64,000 nt of DNA from Paracoccaceae bacterium (GTDB lineage Bacteria > Pseudomonadota > Alphaproteobacteria > Rhodobacterales > Rhodobacteraceae): the NCBI GenBank assembly GCA_046348855.1, contig JAXMDK010000016.1:36721-100720 (forward strand), read 5' to 3'. The translations under genes were made by a program, and so were the position numbers. Numbering within the stretch: position 1 is the stretch's first letter; every line of letters starts with the position of its first letter. Under the pieces are notes generated by a model. It had not been told where the DNA came from and ran no database searches. It saw nothing but the letters and a program-made list of their open reading frames with translations. Below, in pieces: positions 3,970 through 58,003 of the stretch.

Positions 3970-5165
3970 CAGATCGCCCCTACTGCCCTGCCCGCCGCCC
4001 GGAAGGCGTCGATGGCAAAATCAAGATCCTTGCGCGCCAGCCGCGCGTTCATCTGGGTGCGGATGCGGGCCTGGCCCCTCGGCACCACCGGGAAGAAGAA
4101 CCCCGCGACATAGACGCCGCGGTCATAAAGCTCGGCCGCCATGCGCTGCGACAGTTCGGCATCGCCCAGCATCACCGGGATGATCGGATGTTCGCCCGGC
4201 AGCAGGCGGAAACCCGCATCCTCCAGCCCCGCCCGCCAGTAACGGGCATTGTCGAAAAGCTGCGCGCGCAGATCGTCAGCCACCTCGACCAGATCGAGCG
4301 CCGCCAGCCCGGCGGCGACCACCGGCGGCGGCAGCGCATTGGAAAACAGGTAGGGCCGCGCCCGCTGGCGCAGCAGGTCGATCACCGGCTGCGGCCCGGC
4401 GATATAGCCGCCCAGCGCCCCGCCCAGCGCCTTGCCCAGCGTGCCGGTCAGGATGTCGACCCTGTGGGCGACATGGGCATGATGCGGCGTGCCGCGCCCC
4501 TGCGGGCCGACAAAGCCGGTGGCGTGGCAGTCGTCGACCATCACCATCGCCCCGTACTTGGCGGCCAGCGCGGTGATCTCGCGCAGGTTGGCCAGATAGC
4601 CGTCCATCGAAAAGACGCCATCGGTGGCGATCAGGATGAAGCGGGCGCCCTTGGTCCGCGCCTCGTTCAGCCGCGCCTCAAGGTCGGCCATGTCGGAATT
4701 GGCATAGCGATAGCGCTGCGCCTTGCACAGGCGGATGCCGTCGATGATCGAGGCATGGTTCAGCGCGTCGGAAATCACCGCATCCTCGGGGCCGAGCAGC
4801 GGCTCGAACAGGGCGCCGTTGGCGTCGAAGCAGGCGGCGAACAGGATCGCGTCATCCTTGCCCAGAAAGCGCGCCAGCCGTTCCTCCAGCGCGCGATGGA
4901 TGTCCTGGGTGCCGCAGATGAACCGGACCGAGGCCATGCCGTAGCCGTGATCCTCCATCGCCCTGGTGGCGGCGGCGATCAGTTCGGGGCTGTCGGCCAG
5001 GCCCAGATAGTTGTTGGCGCAAAGGTTCAGCAGATAGCGGCCATTGACCGCGACCTGCTTGCGCTGGGCGGTGGTGATCAGCCGCTCGCGCTTCAGCAGC
5101 CCCTCAGCCTCGATCGCGGCCAGGGTTCCGCGCAGGTGATCGAGAAACGCCACTCTTTCCGACAT
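3969..5165 (-). CDS. kbl: Glycine C-acetyltransferase (2-amino-3-ketobutyrate CoA ligase)
   Basis: [47 protein letters not shown]. Confidence 0.97.
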
Positions 5166-5290
5166 GGCAGATACTCCTCCAGTATGACGGAACTATGCTC
5201 TCGGGTCGGGGTTGTGTCAATATATTGGATATGAATCCGCCACAGCGGAATGAACGGATCGCATCATGCCGGCGCCGCGCGGCGCGGCGG

Positions 5291-5848
5291 TCAACTGTTC
5301 TGCACGATCAGGATCGCCCGCGCCGGGCCATCGGCAGCGATCCGGTGCGGACGGTCGGCGAAATAGCGGGCGGTGTCGCCGGTCGACAGGCGACGCTCTT
5401 CTTCGCCCGACGCGACCGTCACCGCCCCTTCCAGAACCGTCAGATGTTCGCGGCAGCCGGGGCTGTGCGGGTCCGACGCCAGTTCGCCACCTGCCGCGAA
5501 TGACAGCTCGTACACCTCGTGCTCGCCCGCCGCCTCGGCCGGCGACAGGATGCGGATGCGCACCCCCTGGCCGCGCCCGTCGATGGTCGGCGCCGCCTCG
5601 GCGCGGATAACCTCGATCCCCGGCGCGGTCTTGCCTTCCAGCAGCCCGGCGAAATCCACCTGCAGCGCCTGAGTCAGGTTCCACAGCGTCGCCACGGTCG
5701 GGCTGGATTCCCCGCGCTCGATCTGGCTGACCATCGACCGGCTGACGCCCGACAGCTTCGCCACCGCGTCCAGGCTCAGCCCCTTGGACTTGCGCGCCGC
5801 TTTCAGCGAGGCGGCGAGGCGGACATGGATGTCGGGGCGGGGATTCAT
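5291..5848 (-). CDS. XRE-family regulator with cupin, probable kbl-tdh regulator
   Basis: SLDAVAKLSGVSRSMVSQIERGESSPT HTH plus cupin (PHSPGCREHL). Confidence 0.9.
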   Translation of the reverse strand: MNPRPDIHVRLAASLKAARKSKGLSLDAVAKLSGVSRSMVSQIERGESSPTVATLWNLTQALQVDFAGLLEGKTAPGIEVIRAEAAPTIDGRGQGVRIRILSPAEAAGEHEVYELSFAAGGELASDPHSPGCREHLTVLEGAVTVASGEEERRLSTGDTARYFADRPHRIAADGPARAILIVQNS

Positions 5849-5882: not shown

Positions 5883-6800
5883 TCAACCGGGCAGGTTGGC
5901 GGTGCCGTCGGGATCGGCGGCCTGATCGACCAGCCAGGCGCGGAAGGCCTGCAGCGGCGGATACCATTCGCCGACCTTGGGCCAGACCAGGAAATAGCTG
6001 CCCTCGGCCAGCGTCGGCCGGCCCCAGGCGGCGACCAGCCGCCCGTCGGCCAGTTCCGACTGGGCCAGGAACTCCGGCAACAGCGCCACCCCCATGCCGT
6101 AGATCGCCGACTGGATCATGGTGGCGAACTGGTCGAACAGCATCCCCGTGGGCGGCCGCGCCTCGACCCCGTGCTGGCGGAACCAGCTGGCCCAGGCGGT
6201 CGGGCGGGTCTCCAGCTGCAGAAGCGGCAGGTCCAGCAGGCTTTCGGGGCCGCCGACCGGATGCGCCTCCAGGAACTGCGGCGCGCAGCAGGCCACCAGC
6301 CGTTCGTCGAACAGTTTCTGGAACCCGGCATTCGGCCAGGTCGCCGCGCCGAAATGGATGGCGGCGTCGAAGCCCTCCTCCTCGAAGTCGAAGGGCCGGA
6401 CCCTTGTGCCCAGGTTGATCGTCACGCCGGGATGGGCGGCCAGGAACCGCGGCAGGCGCGGCGCCAGCCAGCGGGTGCCGAAGGTCGGCAGGATCGCCAG
6501 CGAAAGCGTGCCGCCCCCGGTGTTCGACCGCACCCGCATCGACCCGCGCGAGATCAGGTCCAGCGCCTTGACCACATCGCGGGCATAGGCCATCGCCGCA
6601 TCGGTCGGCACCAGCCGGCGGCCTTCGCGCAGGAACAGCGCCACCCCCAGCTGCGCCTCGAGATTCTGGATCAGCCGGCTGACCGCACCCTGCGTCAGGT
6701 CCAGGTCGCGCGCCGCGGCCAGGGTCGACCCGGTGCGGCAGACCGATTCGAAGGCCTGCAGCAGGCTGACCGAGGGCAGAAGGCGGCGGGCGACGGCCAT
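5883..6800 (-). CDS. LysR-family regulator (GcvA/GcdR-like), divergent from the lysine/glutaryl-CoA operon
   Basis: LTQGAVSR HTH, PTFGTRWLAPRL, substrate-binding domain; divergent from the gcdH operon. Confidence 0.92.
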   Translation of the reverse strand: MAVARRLLPSVSLLQAFESVCRTGSTLAAARDLDLTQGAVSRLIQNLEAQLGVALFLREGRRLVPTDAAMAYARDVVKALDLISRGSMRVRSNTGGGTLSLAILPTFGTRWLAPRLPRFLAAHPGVTINLGTRVRPFDFEEEGFDAAIHFGAATWPNAGFQKLFDERLVACCAPQFLEAHPVGGPESLLDLPLLQLETRPTAWASWFRQHGVEARPPTGMLFDQFATMIQSAIYGMGVALLPEFLAQSELADGRLVAAWGRPTLAEGSYFLVWPKVGEWYPPLQAFRAWLVDQAADPDGTANLPG

Positions 6801-6897
6801 ATATGCGCTCCATACATATAATATCGCCAGAATAGGGTTATTTTCACGGGGAACAATGGCCTAACCGCATAGCCAACCGAATCTCCGGGGGAAGCCC

Positions 6898-8103
6898 ATG
6901 TCCGATCCGTTCCGCCGCGCCGCCCGCATCGCCACTGTCGAGCTGTCGGAAATCCTGCAGGTGTCCGAAGCCGCCGCCGCGATGAAGAAGGCGGGCCACG
7001 ACGTGATCTCGCTCGGCACCGGCGAGCCCGACTTTCCGACGCCGCCCGCCGTCGTCGACGCCGCCCACCGCGCCGCCCAGGCCGGAGAGACCACCTATAC
7101 CGCCACCGCCGGCACCGCCGCGCTGCGCCAGGCGATTGCGGCGGATTGCGAACGGACCAACGGCTACCGGCCCGAACCCGCCGAAATCATCGTCTGCACC
7201 GGCGCCAAGCAGGTGATCTTCAATGCCATGTTCGCCACGCTGGAACCCGGCGACGAGGTCATCGTCGGCGCGCCCTACTGGACCAGCTATCCCGACATCA
7301 TCGGCGTCTGCGGCGGCAAGCCGGTGATCGTGCCGACCAAGGCCGACAGCGGCTTTGCCATCACCGCCGACCAGTTGCGCGCGGCGATCACCCCCCGCAC
7401 CCGCTGGCTCCTGCTCAATTCGCCCGGCAACCCGTCCGGCGCCGTCTATCACCGGGCGCAGCTTGACGCGCTGGCCGAGGTGCTGCGCGACCATCCCCAT
7501 GTCGGCATCATCGCCGACGAGATCTACCAGCACATCTGCTACGTGCCCTTCGCCTCGTTCCGCATGGTCGCCCCCGACCTCGCCGACCGCACGCTGATCG
7601 TGAACGGCGTGTCGAAAAGCTATGCGATGACCGGCTGGCGGATCGGCTGGGGGATCGCGCCCCGGCGGCTGATCGACGCGATGATCGCCGTCCAGGGACA
7701 GATCACCTCGGGCGCCTCGTCGGTCAGCCAGGCGGCGGCACTGGCGGCGCTGACCGGCGACCAGCAGATGCTGGCCGCGCGCAACGACGATTTCCGCGCC
7801 CGCCGCGACATGGTGCGCGACGCGCTGAACGCCACCGGCGTGATTCGCTGCGGGTCGGCCGACGGGGCCTTCTACCTGTTCCCCGACTGCACGCAGACCT
7901 TCGGCAAGACCGCGCCGGACGGAACAAGGATCGAAAAGGATGCCGACTTCTGCGCCGCCCTGCTAAGGTCCGAAGGTGTCGCGCTGGTTCCCGGCCGCGC
8001 CTTCGGCGTGCCCGGCCATTTCCGCCTGTCCTACGCCTATTCGCGCGCCTCGCTGACCGAGGCCTGCAAACGCATCGCCCGTTTCTGTCAATCGCTCGCC
8101 TGA
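6898..8103 (+). CDS. Class I/II aminotransferase, by context a 2-aminoadipate aminotransferase
   Basis: GEPDFPTP, NSPGNPSG, DEIY, GVSKSYAMTGWRIG. Confidence 0.88.
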   Translation: MSDPFRRAARIATVELSEILQVSEAAAAMKKAGHDVISLGTGEPDFPTPPAVVDAAHRAAQAGETTYTATAGTAALRQAIAADCERTNGYRPEPAEIIVCTGAKQVIFNAMFATLEPGDEVIVGAPYWTSYPDIIGVCGGKPVIVPTKADSGFAITADQLRAAITPRTRWLLLNSPGNPSGAVYHRAQLDALAEVLRDHPHVGIIADEIYQHICYVPFASFRMVAPDLADRTLIVNGVSKSYAMTGWRIGWGIAPRRLIDAMIAVQGQITSGASSVSQAAALAALTGDQQMLAARNDDFRARRDMVRDALNATGVIRCGSADGAFYLFPDCTQTFGKTAPDGTRIEKDADFCAALLRSEGVALVPGRAFGVPGHFRLSYAYSRASLTEACKRIARFCQSLA

Positions 8104-8112
8104 GGAACCATC

Positions 8113-9321
8113 ATGGCCCTGAAACCGAAAGACGCCCCCGACCTGTCCCGCTTCGACTGGGAAGATGCCTTCCGCCTGAACGACCAGCTGACCGAGGACG
8201 AGCGCATGATGCGCGACGCCGCCCGCGCCTATGCGGCCGAAAAGCTCCAGCCGCGCGTCACCGAGGCCTACCGCGACGAAAAGACCGATCCGGCGATCTT
8301 CCGCGAAATGGGCGCGATGGGCCTTCTCGGCGTCACCGTCCCCGAGGAATACGGCGGGCTGGGCGCCAGCTACGTCGCCTATGGCCTGGTGGCGCGCGAG
8401 GTCGAGCGGGTCGACAGCGGCTACCGCTCGATGATGTCGGTGCAGTCGTCGCTGGTCATGTATCCGATCTATGCCTACGGCTCGGAAGCGCAGCGCAAGA
8501 AATACCTGCCGAAACTCGCCTCGGGCGAATTCATCGGCTGCTTCGGCCTGACCGAACCCGACGCCGGTTCCGACCCCGCCGGCATGAAGACCCGCGCCAC
8601 GAAAACCGCGAGCGGCTATGTGCTGAACGGCTCGAAGATGTGGATCTCGAACGCGCCGATCGCCGACGTGTTCGTGGTCTGGGCCAAGTCCGAGGCGCAT
8701 GGCGGCAAGATCCGCGGCTTCGTGCTGGAAAAGGGTATGAAGGGCCTCTCGGCACCGAAGATCGGCGGCAAGCTTTCCTTGCGCGCCTCGATCACCGGCG
8801 AGATCGTGATGAAGGACGTGGAAGTTGGCGAGGACGCGCTTCTGCCGAACGTCGAGGGTCTGAAAGGCCCGTTCGGCTGCCTCAACCGCGCCCGCTACGG
8901 CATTGCCTGGGGGGTGATGGGCGCCGCCGAGGCCTGCTTCCACGCCGCCCGCCAGTATGGGCTCGACCGCAAGCAGTTCAACAAGCCAATCGCCCAGACC
9001 CAGATCTTCCAGCTGAAGCTCGCCAACATGCTGACCGAGATTTCGCTGGGGCTTCAGGCCTCGCTCCGCGTCGGCCGGCTGATGGACGAAGCCAACGCCG
9101 CGCCCGAGATGATCTCGATCATCAAGCGCAACAACTGCGGCAAGGCGCTGGAAATCGCCCGCCACGCCCGCGACATGCACGGCGGCAACGGCATCCAGGA
9201 AGATTTCCAGATCATGCGCCACATGGTCAACCTCGAAACGGTCAACACCTACGAGGGCACCCATGACGTCCATGCCCTGATCCTGGGCCGCGCCATCACC
9301 GGGCTTCAGGCCTTCTTCTGA
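8113..9321 (+). CDS. gcdH: Glutaryl-CoA dehydrogenase
   Basis: [56 protein letters not shown]. Confidence 0.96.
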
Positions 9322-9333
9322 TTTTCCCTTGAA

Positions 9334-9391
9334 AAATACTCCCGCCGGAGGCGCCTGGCCTTGCCGGCGGATGCCTCCGGCGGGAGTATTT
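9334..9391. repeat. 19-bp perfect inverted repeat (REP-like doublet)
   Basis: AAATACTCCCGCCGGAGGC (9334-9352) and GCCTCCGGCGGGAGTATTT (9373-9391). Confidence 0.8.
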
Positions 9392-9425
9392 GCGCAAGGA
9401 AAAGCCGCAACAGAGACGAAAAGAC

Positions 9426-11615
9426 ATGGATCGCGCCGATATCGTCCACGACAACTTCCTGCGCCGGGTGGCGGCGCGCGACTTTCCGGCCGGCACCGCG
9501 CCGGCGGGCCCGCTGACGGCCACCGACGCGGTCGCGGCCTACCGCGCCGGGTGTCTCACCCGCGCGCTCGACCGGCAGAGCCGGGCGATGCAGAAGGCCG
9601 GCCAGGGGTTCTATACCATCGGCTCCTCGGGGCACGAAGGTCTGGCGGCGGTGGCGCTGGCGCTCCGGCCAACCGACATGGCCTTCCTCCACTACCGCGA
9701 TGCCGCCTTCCAGATCGCCCGGGCCGGTCAGGTCGACGGCCAATCGATCGCCTGGGACATGCTCCTCTCCTTCGCTGCCTCGTCCGAAGACCCGATCTCG
9801 GGCGGGCGGCACAAGGTGCTGGGCTCGAAGGCGCTGAACATCCCGCCGCAGACCTCGACCATCGCCAGCCACCTGCCGAAGGCGGTGGGGGCGGCCTATG
9901 CCATCGGCGCGGCGCGCCGCCACCGGCCCGAACATCAGGAACTGCCCGACGATTCCATCGTCTATTGTTCGTTCGGCGACGCTTCGGCCAACCATGCGAC
10001 CGCCCAGACCGCCTTCAACACCGCCGGCTGGACCTCCTGGCAGTCGATCCCGCTGCCCTTGCTCTTCGTGTGCGAGGACAACGGCATCGGCATTTCCACC
10101 AAGACGCCGAAAGGCTGGATCGCCGCCGGGTTCCAGAACCGGCCGGGGCTGAAATATTTCCATTGCGACGGGCTTGATCTCTACGACACGTTCCGGGTGG
10201 CGCAAGAAGCCGCCGACTATGTGCGGACCCGCCGCAAGCCCGCCTTCCTGCATGTCAAGACCATCCGCCTTTACGGCCATGCCGGCGCCGACGTGCCGAC
10301 CACCTACCTTTCGCGCGAGGAGGTCGAGGCCGAGGAGGCGCACGATCCCTTGCTGCATGCGGTGCGGCTTCTCGACCAGGCCGGGGCGCTCTCGCCCGAT
10401 CAGGCGCTGGCGATCTATCAGGAAACCAACGCCCGCGTTCAGCGCGTCGCGGCCGAGGCGGTGACCCGCCCGCGGCTGAAGACGGCGGCCGAGGTCATGG
10501 CCAGCCTGATCCCGCCGAAACGCGCCTGCAAGCCCACCAACGGGCCGACCGCCGAAGCTCGCGCCACCGCCTTCGGCGCCGACATGAAGCAGATGGACGA
10601 GCCGCAGATCATGTCGCGGCTCATCAACTGGGCGTTGACCGACCTGATGCTGGCGCATGGCGAGATCGTCATGATGGGCGAGGATGTCGGCCGCAAGGGC
10701 GGCGTCTATGGCGTCACGCAGAAACTGTTCGCCCGTTTCGGACAGGACCGGATGATCGACACGCTGCTCGACGAACAGTCGATCCTCGGCCTTGCCATCG
10801 GCATGGCGCAGAACGGCTTCGTGCCGATGCCGGAAATCCAGTTCCTCGCCTATCTCCACAATGCCGAGGACCAGATCCGGGGCGAGGCGGCGACGCTGTC
10901 GTTCTTCTCGAACGGCCAGTACACCAACCCGATGGTGCTCAGGATCGCCGGCCTCGGCTATCAGAAGGGCTTCGGCGGCCATTTCCACAACGACAATTCG
11001 GTCGCCGTCCTGCGCGACATTCCCGGCGTCATCCTCGCGGTGCCGTCGAACGGCGCCGACGCCGCGAAGATGCTGCGCGAATGCGTGCGTCTGGCGCGGG
11101 AAGAGCAGCGGGTCGTGGTGTTCCTCGAACCGATCGCGCTTTACCCGATGCGCGACCTTCACGGCGAAAAGGACGGCGGCTGGATGTGCCGCTATCCCGA
11201 TCCGTCCGAGGTGATCCCCTTGGGCGAGGTCGGCGTGCATGGCGCGGGCGAGGATATCGCCATCGTCACCTTCGGCAACGGTTACTACCTGTCGCGCCAG
11301 GCCGAGGCGCGGCTGGCGGCCGGGGGCGTGAAGGCGCGCGTCATCGACATGCGCTGGCTGTCGCCCCTGCCGGCCGAGGCGCTGGTCACGGCGGTCGGGG
11401 GCGCGAAGCGTATCCTGGTCGTCGATGAAACCCGCCGGTCGGGCGGGGTGGCCGAAGCCTTGATGGCGCTCTTCGCCGAACGGACGAAGGTGCCGCTGGC
11501 CCGCCTGACCGCCGAGGACAGCTTCATCGCCACCGGCCCGGCCTATGCCGCCACCATGCCCTCGGCCGACAGTGTCTATTCCGCGGCAAAAGCCCTGATC
11601 GGGGGTGGGAAATGA
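9426..11615 (+). CDS. Fused 2-oxoacid dehydrogenase E1 alpha/beta (ThDP-dependent), candidate 2-oxoadipate decarboxylating component
   Basis: Alpha half: GHEG, HYRD, ThDP motif GDA...EDNGIGIS, RLYGH. Beta half: GEDVG, DEQSILG, EIQF, GGHFH. Start taken at MDRADIV. Confidence 0.88.
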   Translation: MDRADIVHDNFLRRVAARDFPAGTAPAGPLTATDAVAAYRAGCLTRALDRQSRAMQKAGQGFYTIGSSGHEGLAAVALALRPTDMAFLHYRDAAFQIARAGQVDGQSIAWDMLLSFAASSEDPISGGRHKVLGSKALNIPPQTSTIASHLPKAVGAAYAIGAARRHRPEHQELPDDSIVYCSFGDASANHATAQTAFNTAGWTSWQSIPLPLLFVCEDNGIGISTKTPKGWIAAGFQNRPGLKYFHCDGLDLYDTFRVAQEAADYVRTRRKPAFLHVKTIRLYGHAGADVPTTYLSREEVEAEEAHDPLLHAVRLLDQAGALSPDQALAIYQETNARVQRVAAEAVTRPRLKTAAEVMASLIPPKRACKPTNGPTAEARATAFGADMKQMDEPQIMSRLINWALTDLMLAHGEIVMMGEDVGRKGGVYGVTQKLFARFGQDRMIDTLLDEQSILGLAIGMAQNGFVPMPEIQFLAYLHNAEDQIRGEAATLSFFSNGQYTNPMVLRIAGLGYQKGFGGHFHNDNSVAVLRDIPGVILAVPSNGADAAKMLRECVRLAREEQRVVVFLEPIALYPMRDLHGEKDGGWMCRYPDPSEVIPLGEVGVHGAGEDIAIVTFGNGYYLSRQAEARLAAGGVKARVIDMRWLSPLPAEALVTAVGGAKRILVVDETRRSGGVAEALMALFAERTKVPLARLTAEDSFIATGPAYAATMPSADSVYSAAKALIGGGK

Positions 11616-12646
11616 CCCGCAAGACCGCCGTCGTCATCTGCCCTGGCCGGGGCACCTACACCAAGGCCGAGCTTGGCTATCTGGGCCGCCATTTCACCGA
11701 CAAGGCGCTCCTGGCCAGCTTCGACGCCACCCGCCGCGATCTCGGGCAGGACACGCTGTCGGCGCTGGACGGGGCGGCCAGCTATTCGGTAGCCCGCCAC
11801 ACCCGCGGCGACAATGCCAGCGGGCTGATCTATGCCTGCACGCTCGGCGACTTCCGCGCCATCGACGCGGGCAGGATCGACGTGGTCGCCGTCACCGGCA
11901 ATTCGATGGGCTGGTATTCGACGCTGGCCTGCGGCGGGGCACTGACCGCCGAAGGCGGGTTCGAGGTGGTCAACACGATGGGCACCCTGATGCAGGAAGC
12001 CCTGATCGGCGGCCAGATCATCTATCCGTTCCTGGGCGAGGACTGGCGGCCCGACCCGGCCAAGAAGGCCGGGCTGCTGGCGCTGGCGGCCGAGATCGGC
12101 GCCCGGCCCGGCCATGTGCTGGCCCTGTCCATCGACCTTGGCGGCATGCTGGTGCTGGCCGGAAACGACGCGGGGCTCAAGGCGTTCGAAACCTCGGTTC
12201 CGCCGGTTCAGGGCCGGTTCCCGATGCGGCTGGCCAACCATGCCGGCTTCCATTCGGCGCTGCAGGCGCCGGTCGCCGAACGCGGCCGCGCCCGGCTTTC
12301 GCCTTCGCTCTTCGGTCAGCCAAAGCTCCCCATGATCGACGGGCGCGGGGTCATCTGGTGGCCGGGGGCGACCGACATCCACCGGCTCTGGGATTATACC
12401 CTCGGCCACCAGGTGACCGAACCCTACGACTTCACCGCCGCCATCCGCATCGCCGCCCGCGAATTCGCCCCCGATCTCTTCATCATCACCGGCCCCGGTA
12501 CCACGCTCGGGGGCGCGGTTGCCCAGTCGCTGATCCTGGCGAACTGGCGTAACATGGGCGCGAAGGCCGATTTCCAGTCACTCCAGCAAACCGCGCCGCT
12601 TCTTGCCGCCATGGGCATGGAAGACCAGCGCGCCATCGTCACCTGA
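11612..12646 (+). CDS. FabD/ACP S-malonyltransferase-like acyltransferase (atypical)
   Basis: CPGRG (cf. FPGQG), GNSMG nucleophile motif (cf. GHSLG), AGFHS catalytic His, GPG; ATGA overlap with E1. Confidence 0.85.
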   Translation: MTRKTAVVICPGRGTYTKAELGYLGRHFTDKALLASFDATRRDLGQDTLSALDGAASYSVARHTRGDNASGLIYACTLGDFRAIDAGRIDVVAVTGNSMGWYSTLACGGALTAEGGFEVVNTMGTLMQEALIGGQIIYPFLGEDWRPDPAKKAGLLALAAEIGARPGHVLALSIDLGGMLVLAGNDAGLKAFETSVPPVQGRFPMRLANHAGFHSALQAPVAERGRARLSPSLFGQPKLPMIDGRGVIWWPGATDIHRLWDYTLGHQVTEPYDFTAAIRIAAREFAPDLFIITGPGTTLGGAVAQSLILANWRNMGAKADFQSLQQTAPLLAAMGMEDQRAIVT

Positions 12647-12656
12647 GGAGGTTTCC

Positions 12657-14156
12657 ATGACCCACGACGACATCCTGAAGGCCGCGGGCCTCACCAAGAC
12701 CGACCTGACCGGCGGCACGCTGGTCGTGCGCTCGCCCATCGACGGCGCCGAACTGGCCCGGCTGCATGAAACCGCCCCGGCCGACATGACCAAGGTCATC
12801 GCCCGGTCGCAGGCGGCGTTCAAGGCCTGGCGCGAAGTGCCGGCCCCGCGCCGGGGCGAACTGGTGCGGCTCCTGGGCGAGGAACTGCGCGCCGCCAAGG
12901 CGGAACTCGGCGCGCTGGTGACGCTCGAGGTCGGCAAGATCACCTCCGAAGGTCTCGGCGAAGTGCAGGAGATGATCGACATCTGCGATTTCGCCGTCGG
13001 CCTGTCGCGGCAGATCTACGGGCTGACCATCGCCTCGGAACGGCCCGGCCACCGGATGATGGAAACCTGGCATCCGCTTGGCCCCTGCGCGATCATCACC
13101 GCCTTCAACTTCCCGGTGGCGGTCTGGTCGTGGAACGCGGCGCTGGCGCTGGTCTGCGGCGACCCGGTGATCTGGAAACCGTCGGAAAAGACCCCGCTGA
13201 CCGCCATCGCCACCCAGAAGATCATGGACCGCGCCCTGAAACGCTTCGGCACCGACGCGCCCGAAGGCCTGTGCCAGCTGGTCATCGGCGGCCCGGCTAT
13301 CGGCGAGGCGCTGGTCGGCTCGAAGGACGTGCCGATCGTGTCGGCCACCGGCTCGACCCGCATGGGCGGGATCGTCGGGCCGAAGGTCTCGGCCCGCTGG
13401 GGCCGGCCGATCCTGGAACTGGGCGGCAACAATGCGATGATCGTCGCGCCCTCGGCCGACATGGACATGGCGGTGCGCGCCATCGTCTTTTCGGCGGTGG
13501 GCACCGCCGGCCAGCGTTGCACCTCGCTCCGCCGGCTGATCGCCCACAACTCGATCAAGGACGAGCTGGTGGCGAAACTGTCCAAGGCCTATGCCAGCCT
13601 GCCGGTCGGCGACCCGCGCAAGGGCACGACGCTGGTCGGCCCGCTGATCGACGCCGCCGCGAAGGACAAGATGCAGGCGATGCTGGGCCGCGCGACGGCC
13701 GAAGGCGGCAAGGTCCACGGCGGCAAGGTCGTCACCGACGGCGTGCCGGCCGGCAACTACGTCAGCCCTGCCATCGTCGAGATGCCCGGCCAGACCGAAA
13801 CGGTGCGCGAGGAAACCTTCGCCCCGATCCTCTATGTCCTCGGCTATGACACGCTGGACGAGGCCATCGCGCTCCAGAACGACGTGCCGCAGGGCCTGTC
13901 GTCCTGCATCTTCACCCTGAACATGCGCGAGGCCGAAACCTTCCTGTCGGCTTCGGGCTCGGACTGCGGCATCGCCAACGTCAACATCGGCCCCTCGGGC
14001 GCCGAGATCGGCGGGGCCTTCGGCGGCGAAAAGGAAACCGGCGGCGGCCGCGAATCGGGCTCGGACGCCTGGAAGGGCTACATGCGGCGGCAGACCAACA
14101 CCCTGAACTATTCGGCGAAACTGCCGCTGGCGCAGGGCGTTAAGTTCGACATCTGA
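12657..14156 (+). CDS. amaB: L-piperideine-6-carboxylate / aminoadipate-semialdehyde dehydrogenase (ALDH7 family)
   Basis: EGLGEVQEMIDICDFAVGLSRQ, ELGGNNA, GTAGQRCT, GAEIGGAFGGEKETGGGRESGSD; GAGGAG RBS. Confidence 0.9.
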   Translation: MTHDDILKAAGLTKTDLTGGTLVVRSPIDGAELARLHETAPADMTKVIARSQAAFKAWREVPAPRRGELVRLLGEELRAAKAELGALVTLEVGKITSEGLGEVQEMIDICDFAVGLSRQIYGLTIASERPGHRMMETWHPLGPCAIITAFNFPVAVWSWNAALALVCGDPVIWKPSEKTPLTAIATQKIMDRALKRFGTDAPEGLCQLVIGGPAIGEALVGSKDVPIVSATGSTRMGGIVGPKVSARWGRPILELGGNNAMIVAPSADMDMAVRAIVFSAVGTAGQRCTSLRRLIAHNSIKDELVAKLSKAYASLPVGDPRKGTTLVGPLIDAAAKDKMQAMLGRATAEGGKVHGGKVVTDGVPAGNYVSPAIVEMPGQTETVREETFAPILYVLGYDTLDEAIALQNDVPQGLSSCIFTLNMREAETFLSASGSDCGIANVNIGPSGAEIGGAFGGEKETGGGRESGSDAWKGYMRRQTNTLNYSAKLPLAQGVKFDI

Positions 14157-14181
14157 CATCGCCGTCAATCACCCTGTTTGG

Positions 14182-14209
14182 AAAGGCCCGCCATATTGGC
14201 GGGCCTTTT
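14182..14209 (+). terminator. Intrinsic terminator after the aldehyde dehydrogenase
   Basis: AAAGGCCCGCCA-TAT-TGGCGGGCCTTTT. Confidence 0.8.
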
Positions 14210-14336
14210 CGTCATTATGTGTATTAATTCATCAATTATGGCTGAAATGACCGAAGCAATCGCCAGCCGGACACAGCAGATTGCGCACCGAAGCGGCCCG
14301 CCATGCGCGGCCCCGACAAGAAGAAAAGGATAGATC

Positions 14337-15416
14337 ATGTCGTTCAGGAAAGTGGCCGTCCTCGGCCTGGGCAAAGTCGGCCATCTGGCCGCGGAACTTC
14401 TGGCGGAATCGGGCTTCGAGGTCACCGGCATCGACGCGCGCGACATCAAGGCGCCCTTCGCCACCCGCAAGGTCGACCTGAAGGATACCGCCGCCCTGGC
14501 CGACGTGCTGAAGGGGCAGGAGGCGATCCTGTCCTGCCTGCCCTACCACCTGAACATCGGCGTCTCGACCGTCGCCCACGGCCTTGGCCTGCACTATTTC
14601 GACCTGACCGAGGACGTGCCCACCACCAAACACATCCGCGAGCTTGCCAAGACCTCCAAGGGCATCATGGCGCCGCAGTGCGGCCTGGCCCCCGGCTTCG
14701 TCGGCATCGTCGGCGCCCACCTGGCCGACCAGTTCGACAAGGTCCGCTCGATCCGCCTGCGCGTCGGCGCGCTGCCGCAGAACCCCACCGGCCTTCTCGG
14801 CTATGCCTTCAACTGGTCGCCCGAAGGCGTCGTCAACGAATATCTGAACGACTGCGAAGTGATCGAGGAAGGCGTCCTGAAATCGGTCTCGGCGATGGAA
14901 TGGCTGGAAACCATCTACATCGACGGGATGCAGCTTGAAGCCTTCACCACCTCGGGCGGGCTCGGTACCATGTGCGAAACCTACGCCGACAAGATCGAGA
15001 ATCTCGACTACAAGACCATGCGCTACCCTGGCCATGTCAAGCTGATGAACTTCTTCTTCCACGAGCTTCTGATGCGCGAAAACCGGGCCGAGGCCGGCCG
15101 CATCCTGACCAACGCCAAGCCGCCGGTCGACGAGGATGTGGTCTATGTCCATGTCGCCGCCGAAGGCACCCAGAACGGCCAGATGCGCCGCAAGGAATTC
15201 GTGCGCTCCTACTATCCGATCGAGATCGGCGGCAAGCACCGCACCGCCATCGCCTGGACCACCTCGGCCTCGGTCGTCGCGGTGATCGAGATGGTGAACG
15301 AAGGCAAGCTGCCGCAGAAGGGCTTCCTCAAGCAGGAGGAAATCCCGCTGGAACCCTACCTGAAGACCCGGACGGGGAACTATTACAACGTCGGCCACAG
15401 AAGCCGGCACGCTTGA
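14337..15416 (+). CDS. Saccharopine dehydrogenase family, probable L-lysine 6-dehydrogenase
   Basis: GLGKVG, YFDLTEDV, PQCGLAPG, WSPEGVVNEY, FTTSGGLGT, YKTMRYPGH. Confidence 0.82.
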   Translation: MSFRKVAVLGLGKVGHLAAELLAESGFEVTGIDARDIKAPFATRKVDLKDTAALADVLKGQEAILSCLPYHLNIGVSTVAHGLGLHYFDLTEDVPTTKHIRELAKTSKGIMAPQCGLAPGFVGIVGAHLADQFDKVRSIRLRVGALPQNPTGLLGYAFNWSPEGVVNEYLNDCEVIEEGVLKSVSAMEWLETIYIDGMQLEAFTTSGGLGTMCETYADKIENLDYKTMRYPGHVKLMNFFFHELLMRENRAEAGRILTNAKPPVDEDVVYVHVAAEGTQNGQMRRKEFVRSYYPIEIGGKHRTAIAWTTSASVVAVIEMVNEGKLPQKGFLKQEEIPLEPYLKTRTGNYYNVGHRSRHA

Positions 15417-15436
15417 CCAGTGAGCGGGTTGATCGG

Positions 15437-15466
15437 GGGGCGGAGCGATCCGCCCCTTTCCTTTTT
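15437..15466 (+). terminator. Intrinsic terminator
   Basis: GGGGCGGA-GCGA-TCCGCCCC followed by a T-rich tract. Confidence 0.75.
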
Positions 15467-15595
15467 CCGGTCTTTTCCCGCCCCCTTGCGCGATTGTCGC
15501 ACTTTCGTGAACAGGCCGGAATTTTCTCTCTGGCCGCCCGAAAGCCGCGCTATAGAGTTGGCAGAGTCGGTGAGTCCCATTTCAGGAGGTCCGTC

Positions 15596-16201
15596 ATGCC
15601 GCCAAACAAGTCCATTCGTTTCCTGATCTTTTCCCTCCTGATGCTGGCCGCCACCCAGGCGCAGGCGCATATCGGCAATGGCGTCGCCGGCGGGTTCTGG
15701 AGCGGCTTCTTCCACCCGCTGTTCGGGCTCGACCATATCGTCGCCATGGTCGGCGTCGGCCTGTGGGGCGCGTTCCTCGGGGCGCCGGCCATCTGGCTGT
15801 TGCCGGTGGTCTTTCCGCTGGTGATGTCGTTCGGGGGGATGCTGGGGATCATGGGCGTGCCCATGCCCGGCGGCGAGACCGGCATCGAGACCGGCATCGC
15901 ACTGTCGGGGATCGTGCTCGGGGCGGCGGTCCTGTTCGGCATCCGCGCGCCCAACTGGGTCGCGGCGGTCATCGTCGGCCTGTTCGCCATCTGTCACGGC
16001 TATGCCCACGGCGCCGAAATGCCGGGCGCGGCCAATGCCTTTTCGTTCGCGCTGGGTTTCGTCATCGCCACCGGCATGCTGCACCTGTGCGGCATCGCGC
16101 TGGGGTTCCTCACGCTCCTGCCCAAGGGGCGCTACGTGGTCAGCAGCCTCGGTGGGGTGATCTGCGCCATCGGCGGCGCCTTCCTGTTCGGTTACCTATG
16201 A
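15596..16201 (+). CDS. HupE/UreJ family Ni/Co permease
   Basis: Signal peptide ending AQA-H, GFFHPLFGLDH, HGYAHGAEMP, GF...TGMLH; AGGAGG RBS. Confidence 0.92.
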   Translation: MPPNKSIRFLIFSLLMLAATQAQAHIGNGVAGGFWSGFFHPLFGLDHIVAMVGVGLWGAFLGAPAIWLLPVVFPLVMSFGGMLGIMGVPMPGGETGIETGIALSGIVLGAAVLFGIRAPNWVAAVIVGLFAICHGYAHGAEMPGAANAFSFALGFVIATGMLHLCGIALGFLTLLPKGRYVVSSLGGVICAIGGAFLFGYL

Positions 16202-16818
16202 AGACCCTTCCGCGCATCAGCCTTGTCGCGCTGACCGTTGCGCTTCTGCCCGTGGCGGCCGAGGCGCACAATTTCGCCAAGGGCACGATCTTCCCCCAGA
16301 TCGTCGAGGGGATCGGCGCTTCGATCAACAGCCCCAGCGGCCTGCTGACCCTGATTCCCCTGGGCATCATGGCCAGCGTCTGGCAGACCGAGGGGATGCT
16401 GCGGCTGATGGCGCCCCTGGTCGCCGGCCTCGTCGCCGGTGTCTTCCTCGCGCTGTTCGGCAGCCCGGCCTATGTGGTGCCGTCGCTCTGCATCGGGATC
16501 CTCAGCGCGCTGCTGGCGGTCATCGCCCGGCCCTGGCCGTTCGCGCCGCTGGCGGCGCTGGCGGCGGCGGCGGGAGTGCTGGTCAACATGGTCACGCTCG
16601 AAGGCCACGGGTTCGGCGAATTGCAGTTCGGCATCTATGTCGGCATCGTCCTTGGCGCCGCGGTGATTCCGCTGATCGCGGCCGCGGTCACGCGCGGGGC
16701 GCTGCAAAAGGTGCCGGCCTTCTGGATGCAGATCGCCGTGCGGGTCATCGCCTCGTGGTCGGCGGCCATCGCGCTGATGTACATGACCTTCCAGTTCAAG
16801 GCGATCATGGGCGGCTGA
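16198..16818 (+). CDS. Divergent HupE/UreJ-like membrane protein
   Basis: Signal peptide AEA-HN, about 6 hydrophobic segments, C-terminal RVIASWSAAIALM; ATGA-coupled to hupE. Confidence 0.65.
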   Translation: MKTLPRISLVALTVALLPVAAEAHNFAKGTIFPQIVEGIGASINSPSGLLTLIPLGIMASVWQTEGMLRLMAPLVAGLVAGVFLALFGSPAYVVPSLCIGILSALLAVIARPWPFAPLAALAAAAGVLVNMVTLEGHGFGELQFGIYVGIVLGAAVIPLIAAAVTRGALQKVPAFWMQIAVRVIASWSAAIALMYMTFQFKAIMGG

Positions 16819-16910
16819 ACCGCCGGAAGGAGCCGGGCAGCAACAAGCCCGGCAACTGTCTTCGGCAAGCAGGGGCAGGGCGGGTGCCACCCTCCCCGCG
16901 CGCCCAACGC

Positions 16911-17017
16911 GCCCCGGAGTTGATCCGGGGCCTCGCCGACCAACCGACGCGCCCTCCCCGGCACGCGCCTGGCAAACCTTTCCAGAAAGACCCCGGCAGG
17001 GTGCGCTTCAGCGCACC
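16911..17017. repeat. Cluster of REP-like hairpins
   Basis: GCCCCGGA-GTTGA-TCCGGGGC at 16911-16931; GCAG-GGTGCGCT-TC-AGCGCACC at 16996-17017. Confidence 0.55.
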
Positions 17018-17313
17018 ACCATCGGCCGAGCAACATTTCGCACAAGAGGTGGCGTTGAAGCGGGAGCGACACTTGCTGTAGAGCCGGGTTTCGCGGCCCA
17101 AATCCGCGTCACGCCAGAAATAGCGTACCAGCTTTGTCGTAGCCGTAGGCGTCGACTTCCTTGAGCAACCGAGCATGCCGTTCGTCTAAGCGCAACAAAC
17201 TGCGTTGTTGTAGATATATGCACCACACAAGCACGACAAGCTTGCTCGCTGTGATTTCAACTGCTACAGCCTGCCTTGTAGAACTCGGAACGCCCCGTGG
17301 AGCGCAACAAGTC

Positions 17314-18447
17314 ATGCACAACCATCTCGATGGCGCCGTTTCCTATCACTATGGCAAGTTCCCGCCTGACAATTTGCGCTTTGAGGAATTGCTCAATCCG
17401 GTCAGTGATGCCGCAAGTGCAATCGCACGGTACGACCAGATGCTTGCCGCGATGCACAACAGCGAGATTCTGCTGGCGCCACTGCGCAACCAGGAAGCGG
17501 TCGTCTCATCCCGTATGGAGGGGACGATTTCAACCCTCGATGAAATCCTGCGCATCGAGGCCGAGGAAGAGGCAGATCAAGACGGCGCATTTCGCATGGC
17601 GCGCAGTGAAGCTGTCGAAACCTTTCTCTACTCTCGCGCCATGCAGCGCTTGCAACGTGAAATCGAGTCGGGAAAGCCGCTGTCCGAGTTCATGATACGA
17701 GCCGCTCATCAGATTCTTCTCTCGTTCGGGCGGGGCGCCGCGAAATCGCCGGGAGCATATAAGACCGAACAGAACTACATCGGTGAAAGACGCAGGCAGC
17801 CGGTTTCCTTCGTGCCGATCAGCCCGGAGGCACTACCCACGGGGATGCAATCGCTTGTTGCCTTTGTTCGCGACAACCCCCTCAACTGCCTGCTGAAGAT
17901 CGCAATAGCGCACGTCGAGTTTGAAGCTCTGCACCCGTTCAAGGATGGCAACGGGCGGATCGGCCGCATGCTGATCACGCTGATGTTATGGACGTCTGGC
18001 CTGATCCGGCAGCCGCATTTCTACGTTAGCTCCTATTTTGAACACTATCGCGATGACTACATCGACATGATGCGCCGCGTCTCATCGCATGACGAATGGA
18101 CCGAGTGGTGTGTGTTCTTTCTAAATGGGCTGCGCAGTCAGGCAGAACGAAACATCTCGACCGCCCAGAGGATTTTCGGTCTCTATGAGGATATGAAGCT
18201 GCGATTCCGGGAAGAGCTGAAAAGCGAGTGGGCAATCGAAGCGTTGGACTTCATGTTCGCAAACCCCAGCTTCAAGAACAGCAAGTTCACCAGCCATGAC
18301 CGTATTCCGCCCCATGTTGCGGCAAACATGTCCAGAAAGTTGCGCGACGCGGGCATCTTGTCACAGATAGCGCCCGGTTCGGGACGGCGACCAGCCATCT
18401 ACGGATTTGCGCCCTTGATCGCAATCGTTCGAGATGAAGACGCATGA
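17314..18447 (+). CDS. Fic family protein with N-terminal inhibitory helix and C-terminal HTH
   Basis: HPFKDGNGRIGR Fic motif, SSRMEGT inhibitory motif; visibly lower GC; start uncertain (frame open from 17161). Confidence 0.92.
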   Translation: MHNHLDGAVSYHYGKFPPDNLRFEELLNPVSDAASAIARYDQMLAAMHNSEILLAPLRNQEAVVSSRMEGTISTLDEILRIEAEEEADQDGAFRMARSEAVETFLYSRAMQRLQREIESGKPLSEFMIRAAHQILLSFGRGAAKSPGAYKTEQNYIGERRRQPVSFVPISPEALPTGMQSLVAFVRDNPLNCLLKIAIAHVEFEALHPFKDGNGRIGRMLITLMLWTSGLIRQPHFYVSSYFEHYRDDYIDMMRRVSSHDEWTEWCVFFLNGLRSQAERNISTAQRIFGLYEDMKLRFREELKSEWAIEALDFMFANPSFKNSKFTSHDRIPPHVAANMSRKLRDAGILSQIAPGSGRRPAIYGFAPLIAIVRDEDA

Positions 18448-18529
18448 GGCCGCGCGGCTAAATAAGCTACCCGAGCGTCAGCCAACCGAACACAGCAAGC
18501 CGCAGCAGCTGCCCGGCGCCCCCCACTCC

Positions 18530-56826: not shown

Positions 56827-56840
56827 GTTCCCATCCTTCC

Positions 56841-57938: not shown

Positions 57939-58003
57939 GGGCACCCCCGGTCCGGCAGAGGAAAGCGCCCCTATAGGGCCAAGGGGACAGCCGCGCAAGC
58001 GGC

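Follow-up and report, generated by a model that had tools for sequence, protein, structure and literature searches.

The updated annotation of Ruegeria (Silicibacter) pomeroyi DSS-3 lists lysdh (SPO0234) and aasadh (SPO0235) and reports that several genes of both lysine pathways have been experimentally verified (PMC4334477). Pseudomonas putida consumes 2-oxoadipate by the HglS/YdiJ route, in which the characterised enzyme HglS (bioRxiv 10.1101/2020.01.30.927905) forms D-2-hydroxyglutarate, which is then converted to 2-oxoglutarate. In animals, the 2-oxoadipate dehydrogenase complex, composed of DHTKD1 (E1a), DLST (E2o), and DLD (E3), converts 2-oxoadipate, CoA, and NAD+ to glutaryl-CoA, CO2, and NADH, and a dedicated E1 there borrows parts of another complex (PMC9367764).

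In the present study, we analysed a window of 64,000 nucleotides from a Paracoccaceae bacterium. The results largely support the view that nearly all genes required for the conversion of lysine to crotonyl-CoA via 2-aminoadipate are grouped in one cluster, putatively controlled by a LysR-type regulator. Though this pathway is already known, the step from 2-oxoadipate to glutaryl-CoA appears to be carried out in a new way, as it may be performed by a FabD-like acyltransferase paired with a thiamine-dependent E1 of the fused type. Our literature search found no published description of such a pair.

Layout and transcription units of the cluster

All seven genes of the set were present and intact, each at the place given in the initial annotation: a LysR gene diverges from genes for an aminotransferase, GcdH, a fused E1, a FabD-like protein, and a P6C dehydrogenase (ALDH7), which are followed by a strong terminator and a LysDH-like gene. 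The genome is a metagenome-assembled genome with 88.5% completeness, and gene absences are thus provisional. The E1 and FabD-like genes were adjacent in all 61 related loci reaching far enough upstream, and genes for GcdH, ALDH7, the aminotransferase, LysDH, and LysR recurred in their neighbourhood in Paracoccaceae, Roseobacteraceae, Sphingomonadales, and Rhizobiales, indicating that the gene order is not due to chance.

The LysR-type regulator (5883–6800, minus strand) contains PF00126 (HTH_1) and PF03466 (LysR_substrate) and is GcvA-like, its top NCBIfam match being the GcvA subfamily at 242.8 bits, under the 288-bit cut-off. In relatives, its orthologues (62–84% identity) lie divergently upstream of the aminotransferase or GcdH gene. 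The divergent control region (6801–6880) carries an LTTR box together with two other conserved boxes, one AATAGnGTTATT-like and one CATAAnGCATA-like, and a promoter-like site was found on the LysR strand at 6847–6818. The LTTR box, ATATG-N9-CATAT, had been proposed as a candidate dyad and lies exactly at 6801–6819; it contains T-N11-A and is kept, with the consensus ATATGC-N7-GCATAT, in more than 15 related genomes in which the first gene is the aminotransferase gene or gcdH, and because of this conservation it is not a chance match. The regulator, presumably together with an effector, may bind this box and control the five-gene operon.

The operon ends at an intrinsic terminator (14180–14216, plus strand; −26.8 kcal/mol, z = −5.9), whose 14-bp stem (14180–14210) lies downstream of the ALDH gene with a T-rich run behind it; the terminator previously placed between ALDH and LysDH is thus real. 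LysDH lies behind this terminator as a separate transcription unit, as had also been suggested. The region upstream of LysDH (14240–14300, plus strand) holds a block, GAAAT..ACCG..AATCGCCAGC..GATTG-like, conserved in about 15 relatives; the LysR box is absent from this region, which matched zero Rfam families at threshold. Because the conserved motif differs from the LysR box, LysDH need not share the regulation of the operon. A second terminator follows LysDH at 15435–15458 (annotated as 15435–15468, plus strand); its z-score is weak (−19.7 kcal/mol, z = −1.75), but it has a 10-bp GC stem with a T run behind it. A very stable REP-like hairpin (9334–9391, plus strand; −54 kcal/mol, z = −8) is located between gcdH and the E1 gene, and its core has seven other copies in the genome. 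In relatives, this position is likewise occupied by that hairpin or by a different strong one.

The proposed 2-oxoadipate step

GcdH (8113–9321, plus strand), a member of the acyl-CoA dehydrogenase family encoded by one copy in the genome, is a glutaryl-CoA dehydrogenase of the decarboxylating type, which forms crotonyl-CoA and CO2. It showed full-length matches to the GCDHs of Burkholderia pseudomallei (608 bits) and human (556 bits), compared with only 186 bits for the non-decarboxylating D. multivorans enzyme, and would turn glutaryl-CoA into crotonyl-CoA as the fifth step of the pathway.

The fused E1 alpha–beta thiamine-diphosphate enzyme (9426–11615, plus strand; PF00676 [E1_dh], PF02779 [Transket_pyr], and PF02780 [Transketolase_C]) is a putative 2-oxoadipate decarboxylase/dehydrogenase. 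Its open reading frame spans 9390–11615, and the likely true start, ATG at 9426, gives a protein of 729 amino acids, matching the length of its homologues. The translation shows the ThDP motif GDA...EDNG and a complete E1-beta C-terminal domain, and it keeps the residues aligned with the activating beta-Glu59 and with beta-His128 of the G. stearothermophilus E1, the latter being one of the residues that catalyse the reductive acylation of lipoamide. E1 has one copy in the genome and had no equivalog match in NCBIfam. The start codon of the FabD-like gene (11612–12646, plus strand) overlaps the E1 stop codon, and the two genes are translationally coupled. Its product, a FabD-fold serine acyltransferase and putative glutaryl transferase, matches FabD structures at 1e-8 and TIGR00128 at 35.8 bits (cut-off, 260.9 bits), and a genuine fabD lies elsewhere in the genome, on contig C12. 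The Ser/His dyad is kept, with the GNSMG Ser and the FH His both invariant, but the acyl pocket is remodelled: a Met replaces the malonate-binding Arg of FabD, and a new Arg appears in the PGxG loop.

No E2, lipoyl carrier, or E3 gene was found in the cluster or in any related locus, and the genome has two E2 genes outside the cluster. The 2-oxoadipate step must thus borrow parts encoded elsewhere, and the initial annotation went too far in calling the cluster complete and every step assignable. We suggest that the fused E1 uses thiamine diphosphate to decarboxylate 2-oxoadipate, with reductive glutarylation of a lipoyl group that it obtains in trans, probably from the E2 of the cell's pyruvate or 2-oxoglutarate dehydrogenase. 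The FabD-like serine acyltransferase may then shift the glutaryl group to CoA by way of an acyl-serine, with re-oxidation of the lipoyl group by the housekeeping E3. FabD transfers acyl groups between two thiol carriers via acyl-serine, and the role proposed for the FabD-like protein fits this chemistry, though our literature search found no precedent for an enzyme of the FabD fold that uses a lipoyl thioester as substrate. We estimate the probability at about 0.72 that the cluster encodes the lysine 6-dehydrogenase/2-aminoadipate route, with the 2-oxoadipate step performed by E1 and the FabD-like protein together with a borrowed lipoyl E2 and E3.

HglS (PF07063) was found neither in the cluster, as noted before, nor in the rest of the 88.5% complete assembly. 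In sister genera, LysDH, ALDH7, and the orthologous aminotransferase (AT) are joined to HglS and a D-2-hydroxyglutarate-dehydrogenase-like gene, which replace E1, FabD-like, and GcdH; the gene order is ALDH7–LysDH–ABC transporter–AT–HglS–FAD oxidase in one such genome (G427), and LysR diverging from AT–ALDH7–HglS–YdiJ-like in another (G281). Among the 200 genera of the family sampled, HglS was found in seven, none of which had the FabD-like protein. The front end is thus joined to either of two back ends that never co-occurred in this sample, supporting 2-oxoadipate as the product of the aminotransferase and the substrate of the E1 pair. The FabD-like protein occurred in 33 of the 200 genera and ALDH7 in 45, with both in 18 (odds ratio 6.2); LysDH occurred in 23, of which 13 also had the FabD-like protein (odds ratio 10).

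It is unlikely that the front end and GcdH act as proposed while glutaryl-CoA is a promiscuous product of the housekeeping 2-oxoglutarate dehydrogenase complex and the E1/FabD-like pair serves another 2-oxoacid or loads a carrier protein. Consistent with such a division of labour, zero loci have E2 or E3 beside the pair, and 15 of the 33 FabD-like-positive genera lacked an ALDH7 match (a soft count, with seven candidates scored per genome), indicating that the pair is not strictly tied to the lysine route. Furthermore, in Sphingomonadales the pair adjoins a flavin monooxygenase with no lysine genes there, and 22 of the 45 ALDH7-positive genera had neither FabD-like nor HglS, so that other handling of 2-oxoadipate, or a halt at 2-aminoadipate, exists. 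Nevertheless, gcdH is the most frequent neighbour of the pair, the pair fills the HglS slot in otherwise equivalent clusters and never occurred with HglS in the 200 genera, no ACP gene lies nearby, and the malonate-binding Arg has been lost from the FabD-like pocket, all of which argue against this division of labour.

A very improbable alternative is that E1 decarboxylates 2-oxoadipate non-oxidatively to glutarate semialdehyde, which an aldehyde dehydrogenase oxidises to glutarate and a CoA-transferase encoded elsewhere converts to glutaryl-CoA, with the FabD-like protein as a hydrolytic or proofreading accessory that, for example, clears stray glutaryl from lipoyl groups. This would make E2 and E3 unnecessary; CaiB, a CoA-transferase of A. 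tumefaciens, makes glutaryl-CoA from glutarate (PMC7645780), and the mammalian serine hydrolase ABHD11 strips glutaryl adducts from lipoate (PMC12643935). However, E1 retains the residue aligned with beta-His128 and the E1-beta C-terminal domain, a CoA-transferase is neither in the cluster nor recurrent in related loci, and GcdH–E1–FabD-like trios exist without a nearby ALDH gene.

Probable route from lysine to 2-oxoadipate

In the proposed route, LysDH would oxidatively deaminate the epsilon-amino group of lysine to 2-aminoadipate semialdehyde, which cyclises to P6C. The putative L-lysine 6-dehydrogenase (14337–15416, plus strand; PF03435 and PF16653) has the saccharopine-dehydrogenase fold, and its top solved match, at about 30% identity, was 3abi, the L-lysine 6-dehydrogenase of P. 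horikoshii (PMC10413350). It belongs to a clade other than that of the R. pomeroyi type, having 41% identity to an Aliiroseovarius protein that is encoded beside ALDH7 and scores 184 bits against the R. pomeroyi fragment 3ic5. Relatives with 87–94% identity bear the NCBI name 'L-lysine dehydrogenase', and LysDH adjoins ALDH7 in many genera. No lysine–oxoglutarate reductase was found in the genome (88.5% complete), in which alanine dehydrogenase and PntA are the sole members of the AlaDh_PNT family, making a saccharopine route unlikely. The lysine 6-dehydrogenase function previously assigned to this 'saccharopine dehydrogenase' from its context is strengthened by the cross-genome evidence, the similarity to the Ruegeria-type protein, and the top structural match, though we infer the activity itself; the earlier interpretation of the locus as a lysine-to-crotonyl-CoA cluster stands for the main pathway, and not for completeness, for LysDH activity as a given fact, or for co-regulation of LysDH.

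It is highly unlikely that this gene acts on another amine and that the operon degrades P6C or semialdehyde derived from pipecolate, D-lysine, or imported 2-aminoadipate, since, against the separate transcription unit with its own upstream motif, zero NCBIfam equivalog matches, the low identity to the solved LysDH, the lack of LysDH in many clusters, and a second protein of the same fold in the window (carboxynorspermidine-synthase-like), two LysDH clades are each repeatedly found beside ALDH7, LysDH in G427 has ALDH7 on one side and a polar-amino-acid ABC transporter on the other, no lysine–oxoglutarate reductase was found as a saccharopine source, and among solved structures a LysDH is matched best and not a saccharopine reductase.

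ALDH7 (12658–14156, plus strand), an AmaB-type L-piperideine-6-carboxylate/2-aminoadipate-semialdehyde dehydrogenase, passed the NCBI P6C dehydrogenase equivalog NF050084 with 813.5 bits against a 730-bit cut-off and would oxidise the semialdehyde/P6C to 2-aminoadipate. Its open reading frame begins at 12603, and the likely true start is ATG at 12658, 12 nt past the FabD-like stop codon and preceded by a GAGGAGG ribosome-binding site.

The class Ib aspartate-aminotransferase-like enzyme (6898–8103, plus strand; PF00155, class I), whose closest solved relatives are AatB and AatA of S. meliloti, is a putative 2-aminoadipate:2-oxoglutarate aminotransferase. Its G-x-K-Q Lys, PLP lysine, and C-terminal Arg are all kept, and it has a housekeeping paralogue with 50% identity on contig C19. 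In the phylogenetic tree, the aminotransferases of the HglS and E1/FabD-like clusters grouped, with 100/100 support, in a single clade that excludes the housekeeping AspAT paralogues, containing only members of 2-oxoadipate clusters, including two beside HglS. The function suggested for it from context is strengthened by this shared clade and by the same front end beside HglS in sister genera: the dedicated AspAT-Ib-type enzyme may transfer the amino group of 2-aminoadipate to 2-oxoglutarate, forming 2-oxoadipate. However, in two close relatives (G259 and G402) the cluster lacks a dedicated aminotransferase, which counts against this reading.

Comparison with described systems

The lysdh–aasadh pair of R. 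pomeroyi (Neshich et al., 2013, via PMC4334477), a bacterium belonging to the same taxonomic order, likewise has a saccharopine-dehydrogenase-fold LysDH beside an ALDH7-type aminoadipate-semialdehyde dehydrogenase, and shares the first two steps. Whereas the role described there is the production of aminoadipate as an osmolyte, LysDH and ALDH7 here accompany an aminotransferase, GcdH, and a module for 2-oxoadipate, pointing to full catabolism. The HglS route consumes the same 2-oxoadipate and, in sister genera, is found in the corresponding slot of the genome, following the same aminotransferase and ALDH7; however, HglS is an Fe(II) oxygenase of unrelated chemistry, and the end product is 2-oxoglutarate instead of crotonyl-CoA.

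The proposed net reaction and the position in lysine catabolism are those of the animal 2-oxoadipate dehydrogenase complex, as is the borrowing of parts by a dedicated E1. However, DHTKD1 is a homodimeric E1o-type enzyme, while the cluster E1 is of the fused alpha–beta PDH/BCKDH type and is thus an analogue, not an orthologue, with a private FabD-fold acyltransferase that animals do not have. This acyltransferase has in common with FabD (malonyl-CoA:ACP transacylase; TIGR00128; 1mla, 2g2z) the fold by sequence, the Ser–His dyad, and the overall length, and differs in carrying about 40 additional, conserved residues at its C-terminus. Mitochondrial ABHD11 is likewise a serine enzyme acting on the S-glutaryl-lipoyl groups of E2 in lysine catabolism, but it has an alpha/beta hydrolase fold and hydrolyses the adduct to glutarate (PMC12643935), whereas the FabD-like protein may transfer the glutaryl group to CoA. 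Actinobacterial OdhA offers a precedent for an E1 with its own acyltransferase and a lipoyl group supplied in trans (PMC10415282). Its architecture, with no lipoyl domain on E1, is that proposed for the cluster pair, though OdhA has as its acyltransferase an E2 catalytic domain of the canonical kind, fused to E1o, whereas the FabD-fold serine enzyme of the cluster is a separate protein coupled to an alpha–beta-type E1.

Organization and candidate control elements of the cluster

The host genome (3.36 Mb in 49 contigs, 88.5% complete) carries the window on contig C16, and the closest named relatives of its proteins belong to Albidovulum, Defluviimonas, Frigidibacter, and other Paracoccaceae. 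The G+C content across the region was 63–70%, and calling genes by third-position GC gave one clean gene set, whose families were assigned with Pfam and NCBIfam profiles. A LysR gene on the reverse strand (5883–6800) is divergent from a forward-strand series encoding a class I aminotransferase (6898–8103), an acyl-CoA dehydrogenase (GcdH, 8113–9321), a fused alpha-beta E1 (9390/9426–11615), a FabD-like protein without a Pfam match (11612–12646), and an aldehyde dehydrogenase (ALDH7, 12603/12658–14156). The likeliest start of E1 is ATG 9426, giving 729 aa as in its homologues, and that of ALDH7 is ATG 12658, with a GAGGAGG site ahead of it. The ATG of the FabD-like gene overlaps the E1 stop codon, and it does so in relatives as well. 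A terminator on the forward strand (14180–14216) follows the aldehyde dehydrogenase gene as a 14-bp GC-rich hairpin with a T-rich tail (−26.8 kcal/mol, z = −5.9), and beyond it lies the forward-strand gene of a LysDH-like protein (14337–15416) with another terminator at its 3′ side. The initial annotation had described this layout with a terminator and a dyad, and it was confirmed because the gene set, the terminators, and the dyad, at exactly 6801–6819, were all located.

The LysR protein has HTH_1 and LysR substrate domains, and together with its divergent orientation and a T-N11-A box in the shared control region these features identify it as an LTTR. The candidate LysR box, with the consensus ATATGC-N7-GCATAT, abuts the LysR start codon, was found in more than 15 relatives, and is kept whether the aminotransferase gene or gcdH is first in the operon; two more conserved boxes lie downstream of it. 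Upstream of the LysDH-like gene (14240–14300), approximately 15 relatives share a conserved block (GAAAT..ACCG..AATCGCCAGC..GATTG-like), which is unlike the LysR box and may bind a second regulator or belong to a promoter. A riboswitch or other known RNA ahead of this gene or in the operon was rejected, as just two sub-threshold Rfam matches were obtained, both on terminators. One match, to the SorX sRNA (14119–14211; 25 bits against a gathering score of 46.6 bits), overlaps the ALDH7 3′ end and the terminator and probably reflects mere terminator similarity. Between gcdH and E1 (9334–9391) lies a REP-like perfect palindrome with arms of approximately 20 bp (−54 kcal/mol), and the genome holds seven further copies of its core, CTCCCGCCGGAGG. 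In many Paracoccaceae this gap likewise contains the palindrome or a different strong hairpin, and the hairpin may give the two operon halves unequal expression levels.

Other parts of the window were also noted. On the reverse strand at 2932–5848, a Tdh-like gene of the zinc alcohol-dehydrogenase fold (2932–3969), a Kbl-like gene of the class I/II aminotransferase fold (3969–5165), and an HTH_3-cupin regulator gene (5291–5848) probably form a unit for threonine degradation that has no relation to the lysine cluster. Directly 3′ of the LysDH-like gene (15500–18500), the G+C content falls to 0.57–0.64, and because this segment also holds an ORF without a Pfam match (15763–16818) and a Fic/DOC-domain gene (17161–18447), it may have been acquired. 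On the reverse strand at 55585–58148, a second saccharopine-dehydrogenase-fold gene (415 bits on carboxynorspermidine synthase against a cut-off of 800 bits) adjoins an nspC-like decarboxylase gene (403 bits, just below the 409-bit cut-off), and the two look like a divergent polyamine pair.

Candidate enzymes flanking the 2-oxoadipate step

The chemistry of the lysine 6-dehydrogenase/2-aminoadipate pathway is textbook knowledge. The LysDH-like protein has the saccharopine-dehydrogenase fold, with an NAD(P)-binding N-terminal domain and a C-terminal domain (PF03435 and PF16653), and alignment placed the glycine-rich loop GLGKVG at residues 9–14. Its top solved relative was 3abi (1e-18), the L-lysine 6-dehydrogenase of Pyrococcus horikoshii (PMC10413350), and saccharopine reductases matched at 1e-6 or weaker. 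It was nearer to characterized LysDH than to saccharopine reductase, carboxyspermidine dehydrogenase, or homospermidine synthase. Over its full length it was 41% identical to an Aliiroseovarius protein of the Ruegeria-type clade that is encoded directly upstream of ALDH7. This Aliiroseovarius protein matched 3ic5, the solved N-terminal fragment of a 'putative saccharopine dehydrogenase' of R. pomeroyi, with 184 bits over 116 residues, and we infer that 3ic5 is SPO0234. In Ruegeria pomeroyi, lysdh (SPO0234) adjoins aasadh (SPO0235); the updated DSS-3 annotation gives their functions and reports experimental verification for several genes in the two lysine pathways (PMC4334477).

LysDH-like genes of both clades were detected in 23 of 200 genera of the family, 16 of which also had ALDH7 in a search that scored seven candidates per genome, and by their coordinates the two genes were often adjacent. 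Relatives 87–94% identical to the LysDH-like protein carry the NCBI name 'L-lysine dehydrogenase'. The saccharopine route was rejected: no lysine-oxoglutarate reductase was found in the 88.5% complete genome, the sole AlaDh_PNT proteins of which are PntA and an alanine dehydrogenase scoring 508 bits on its own equivalog, and saccharopine would thus not be expected among the metabolites of this host. Considering together the structure match, the Ruegeria-type identity, the adjacency to ALDH7, the lack of a lysine-oxoglutarate reductase, and the NCBI names, the LysDH-like gene likely encodes an L-lysine 6-dehydrogenase. The LysDH-like protein shares 89% identity with a protein of a Brucella sp., which hints at horizontal transfer of its gene.

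The assignments of ALDH7 as the L-piperideine-6-carboxylate dehydrogenase and of GcdH as the glutaryl-CoA dehydrogenase are well founded. ALDH7 scored 813.5 bits on the corresponding equivalog NF050084 (ALDH7/AmaB), above its 730-bit cut-off. GcdH matched the solved Burkholderia and human GCDH over its full length with 608 and 556 bits, respectively, against at most 240 bits for other acyl-CoA dehydrogenases and 186 bits for the non-decarboxylating Desulfococcus enzyme, placing it with the decarboxylating glutaryl-CoA dehydrogenases. The genome carries one copy of each gene.

The aminotransferase belongs to the class Ib aspartate-aminotransferase group, with S. meliloti AatB and AatA as its top solved relatives, and retains the PLP lysine, the C-terminal Arg, and the Lys of the G-x-K-Q motif, which we take to contact the acidic side chain in class Ib AspAT. 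A separate housekeeping paralogue, 50% identical, is encoded on contig C19. In the maximum-likelihood tree, 19 aminotransferases from clusters of the E1 type and two from clusters with HglS formed one clade with 100/100 support, from which nine paralogues at other loci of the same genomes were separate; a single Kaistiaceae cluster aminotransferase was placed outside this clade. Genomic context thus points to a putative 2-aminoadipate aminotransferase. Close relatives of the Gemmobacter type (genomes G259 and G402 and loci L014–L024) have the order LysR-GcdH-E1-FabD-like-ALDH7-LysDH without a dedicated aminotransferase. In G259 and G402, AspAT is present only as the housekeeping paralogue, which presumably does the transamination.

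Exchange with the HglS route and distribution

HglS converts 2-oxoadipate to D-2-hydroxyglutarate (bioRxiv 10.1101/2020.01.30.927905). As the initial annotation had stated, this route was not seen here: the assembly, at 88.5% completeness, gave no match to PF07063, the HglS family, and HglS was detected in seven of 200 related genera. In one relative (G427), the gene order is ALDH7, LysDH (65% identical), a polar-amino-acid ABC transporter, the aminotransferase (58%), HglS, and an FAD-linked oxidase; in another (G281), LysR is divergent from the aminotransferase, ALDH7, HglS, and a 960-aa YdiJ-like FAD/Fe-S oxidase. One front end is thus joined either to HglS with a 2-hydroxyglutarate-dehydrogenase-like gene or to E1-FabD-like-GcdH.

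Class-wide sampling detected the FabD-like gene in three of 250 genomes, and sampling at the family level was adopted because these positives were too sparse. Across the 200 genera of the family, the FabD-like gene was found in 33 and HglS in seven, with no co-occurrence. ALDH7 was found in 45 genera, 18 with the FabD-like gene, five with HglS, and 22 with neither; its negatives are soft, since seven candidates per genome were scored. The FabD-like gene was enriched in ALDH7-positive (odds ratio 6.2) and LysDH-positive genera (odds ratio 10), with p-values that overstate the enrichment because related genera are not independent. GcdH, present in 191 of the 200 genera, was uninformative as a phylogenetic profile and was dropped. 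The culturable relatives Gemmobacter aquatilis DSM 3857, Albidovulum sediminicola WL0075, and Defluviimonas aestuarii JCM 18630 also have the cluster. In five Sphingomonadales loci (L026, L050, L053, L055, and L074), the E1/FabD-like pair is followed by flavin-containing monooxygenase-like and CinA/MoCF-like genes, not by lysine genes. The module swap and the distribution are the strongest evidence that the aminotransferase may make 2-oxoadipate and that the pair may consume it. Glutaryl-CoA would be the most economical product, because gcdH lies in the same operon.

Ruegeria pomeroyi was already known to possess the LysDH-AASADH pair (PMC4334477), and in Phaeobacter inhibens 2-aminoadipate is among the labelled intermediates when lysine is degraded (PMC5653290). 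Agrobacterium tumefaciens turns 2-oxoadipate into a biotin precursor derived from glutaryl-CoA, a step to which no enzyme is assigned in the part of the account available to us (PMC7645780). In the literature searched, HglS was the only bacterial 2-oxoadipate enzyme named for the 2-aminoadipate branch, no report linked bacterial genes with the formation of glutaryl-CoA from 2-oxoadipate, and the GapMind paper did not discuss this step; neither the E1/FabD-like pair nor the full cluster was described. The pathway chemistry and the LysDH-AASADH pair are thus known, and the candidate role of the E1/FabD-like pair appears to have no prior account. The bacterial routes of lysine catabolism are still being filled in. 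The cluster and its HglS-bearing counterparts in sister genera represent a natural module swap, which gives a specific, testable function to a 'generic' AspAT paralogue and a 'saccharopine dehydrogenase', provides gene candidates for the ketogenic conversion of 2-oxoadipate to glutaryl-CoA in Alphaproteobacteria, and points to a possible new acyl-transfer solution in 2-oxoacid dehydrogenases. The source of glutaryl-CoA is of wider interest because it primes BioZ-type biotin synthesis in Alphaproteobacteria (PMC7645780). The cluster enzymes are also relevant to the engineered production of 2-aminoadipate, pipecolate, and glutarate, and in many genomes of Paracoccaceae and other Alphaproteobacteria, correct annotation would supplant the names 'ACP S-malonyltransferase' and 'saccharopine dehydrogenase'.

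The E1/FabD-like pair as a candidate 2-oxoadipate dehydrogenase

The translated E1 contains the ThDP motif GDA...EDNG and a full C-terminal domain, and retains the residues aligned with beta-Glu59 and beta-His128 of the Geobacillus stearothermophilus E1 (1w85), which we take to be the activating Glu and the active-site His, respectively; from these features, E1 looks catalytically complete. The FabD-like protein scored 35.8 bits on TIGR00128 against a cut-off of 260.9 bits, placing it outside that family, and a genuine fabD (321 bits) is present on contig C12. The FabD-like family (approximately 150 clusters at 50% identity, E < 1e-30) has an invariant Ser98, in GNSMG, and an invariant His214, which correspond to the catalytic Ser (GHSxG) and His of FabD and align with the host's own FabD. 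A nearly invariant Met123 occupies the aligned site of the malonate-binding Arg of FabD (R117 in E. coli numbering), which binds the malonyl carboxylate. The family also has a new fixed Arg in a PGxG loop and a conserved C-terminal tail of approximately 40 residues.

E1 requires an oxidant, and the FabD-like protein has no redox cofactor domain. An E2 (lipoyl domain with PF00198) was found beside E1 neither in the window cluster nor in 80 related loci, and the same held for a lipoyl protein or E3 beside the pair; a pyridine-nucleotide disulfide oxidoreductase was absent from the cluster, and the sole two E2 genes of the genome sit on other contigs. A hidden lipoyl, E2, or E3 gene near the pair was rejected by clustering all ORFs of the 80 loci and running the recurrent neighbours through Pfam, which returned only a flavin monooxygenase, a CinA-like protein, a deacetylase, an MFS transporter, and the like. 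Nor did an exhaustive search find the FabD-like protein fused to another domain, such as a lipoyl domain or ACP, among its best 150 matches, all of at most 391 aa. Distant family members added nothing to the locus comparison, since their contigs were short or came without DNA. The claim of the initial annotation that every step can be assigned thus held at the level of candidate genes but not for mechanism, as the cluster lacks an E2, a lipoyl protein, and an E3, and it is not self-sufficient.

We propose that E1 would glutarylate a lipoyl arm supplied in trans and that the FabD-like enzyme would pass the glutaryl group from this arm to CoA via an acyl-serine, which is the mechanism we prefer. 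ABHD11 demonstrates that serine enzymes are able to act on glutaryl-lipoyl thioesters (PMC12643935). With a probability of roughly one in three, the pair may represent a new kind of 2-oxoacid dehydrogenase system, in which a FabD-fold acyltransferase replaces the chloramphenicol-acetyltransferase-like E2 core and borrows the lipoyl arm of another complex, and may be the missing bacterial 2-oxoadipate dehydrogenase, an alternative to HglS widespread in Alphaproteobacteria. The proposed mechanism would mirror that of actinobacterial OdhA, in which an acyltransferase domain is built into the protein and the lipoyl groups used are those of the PDH E2 (PMC10415282).
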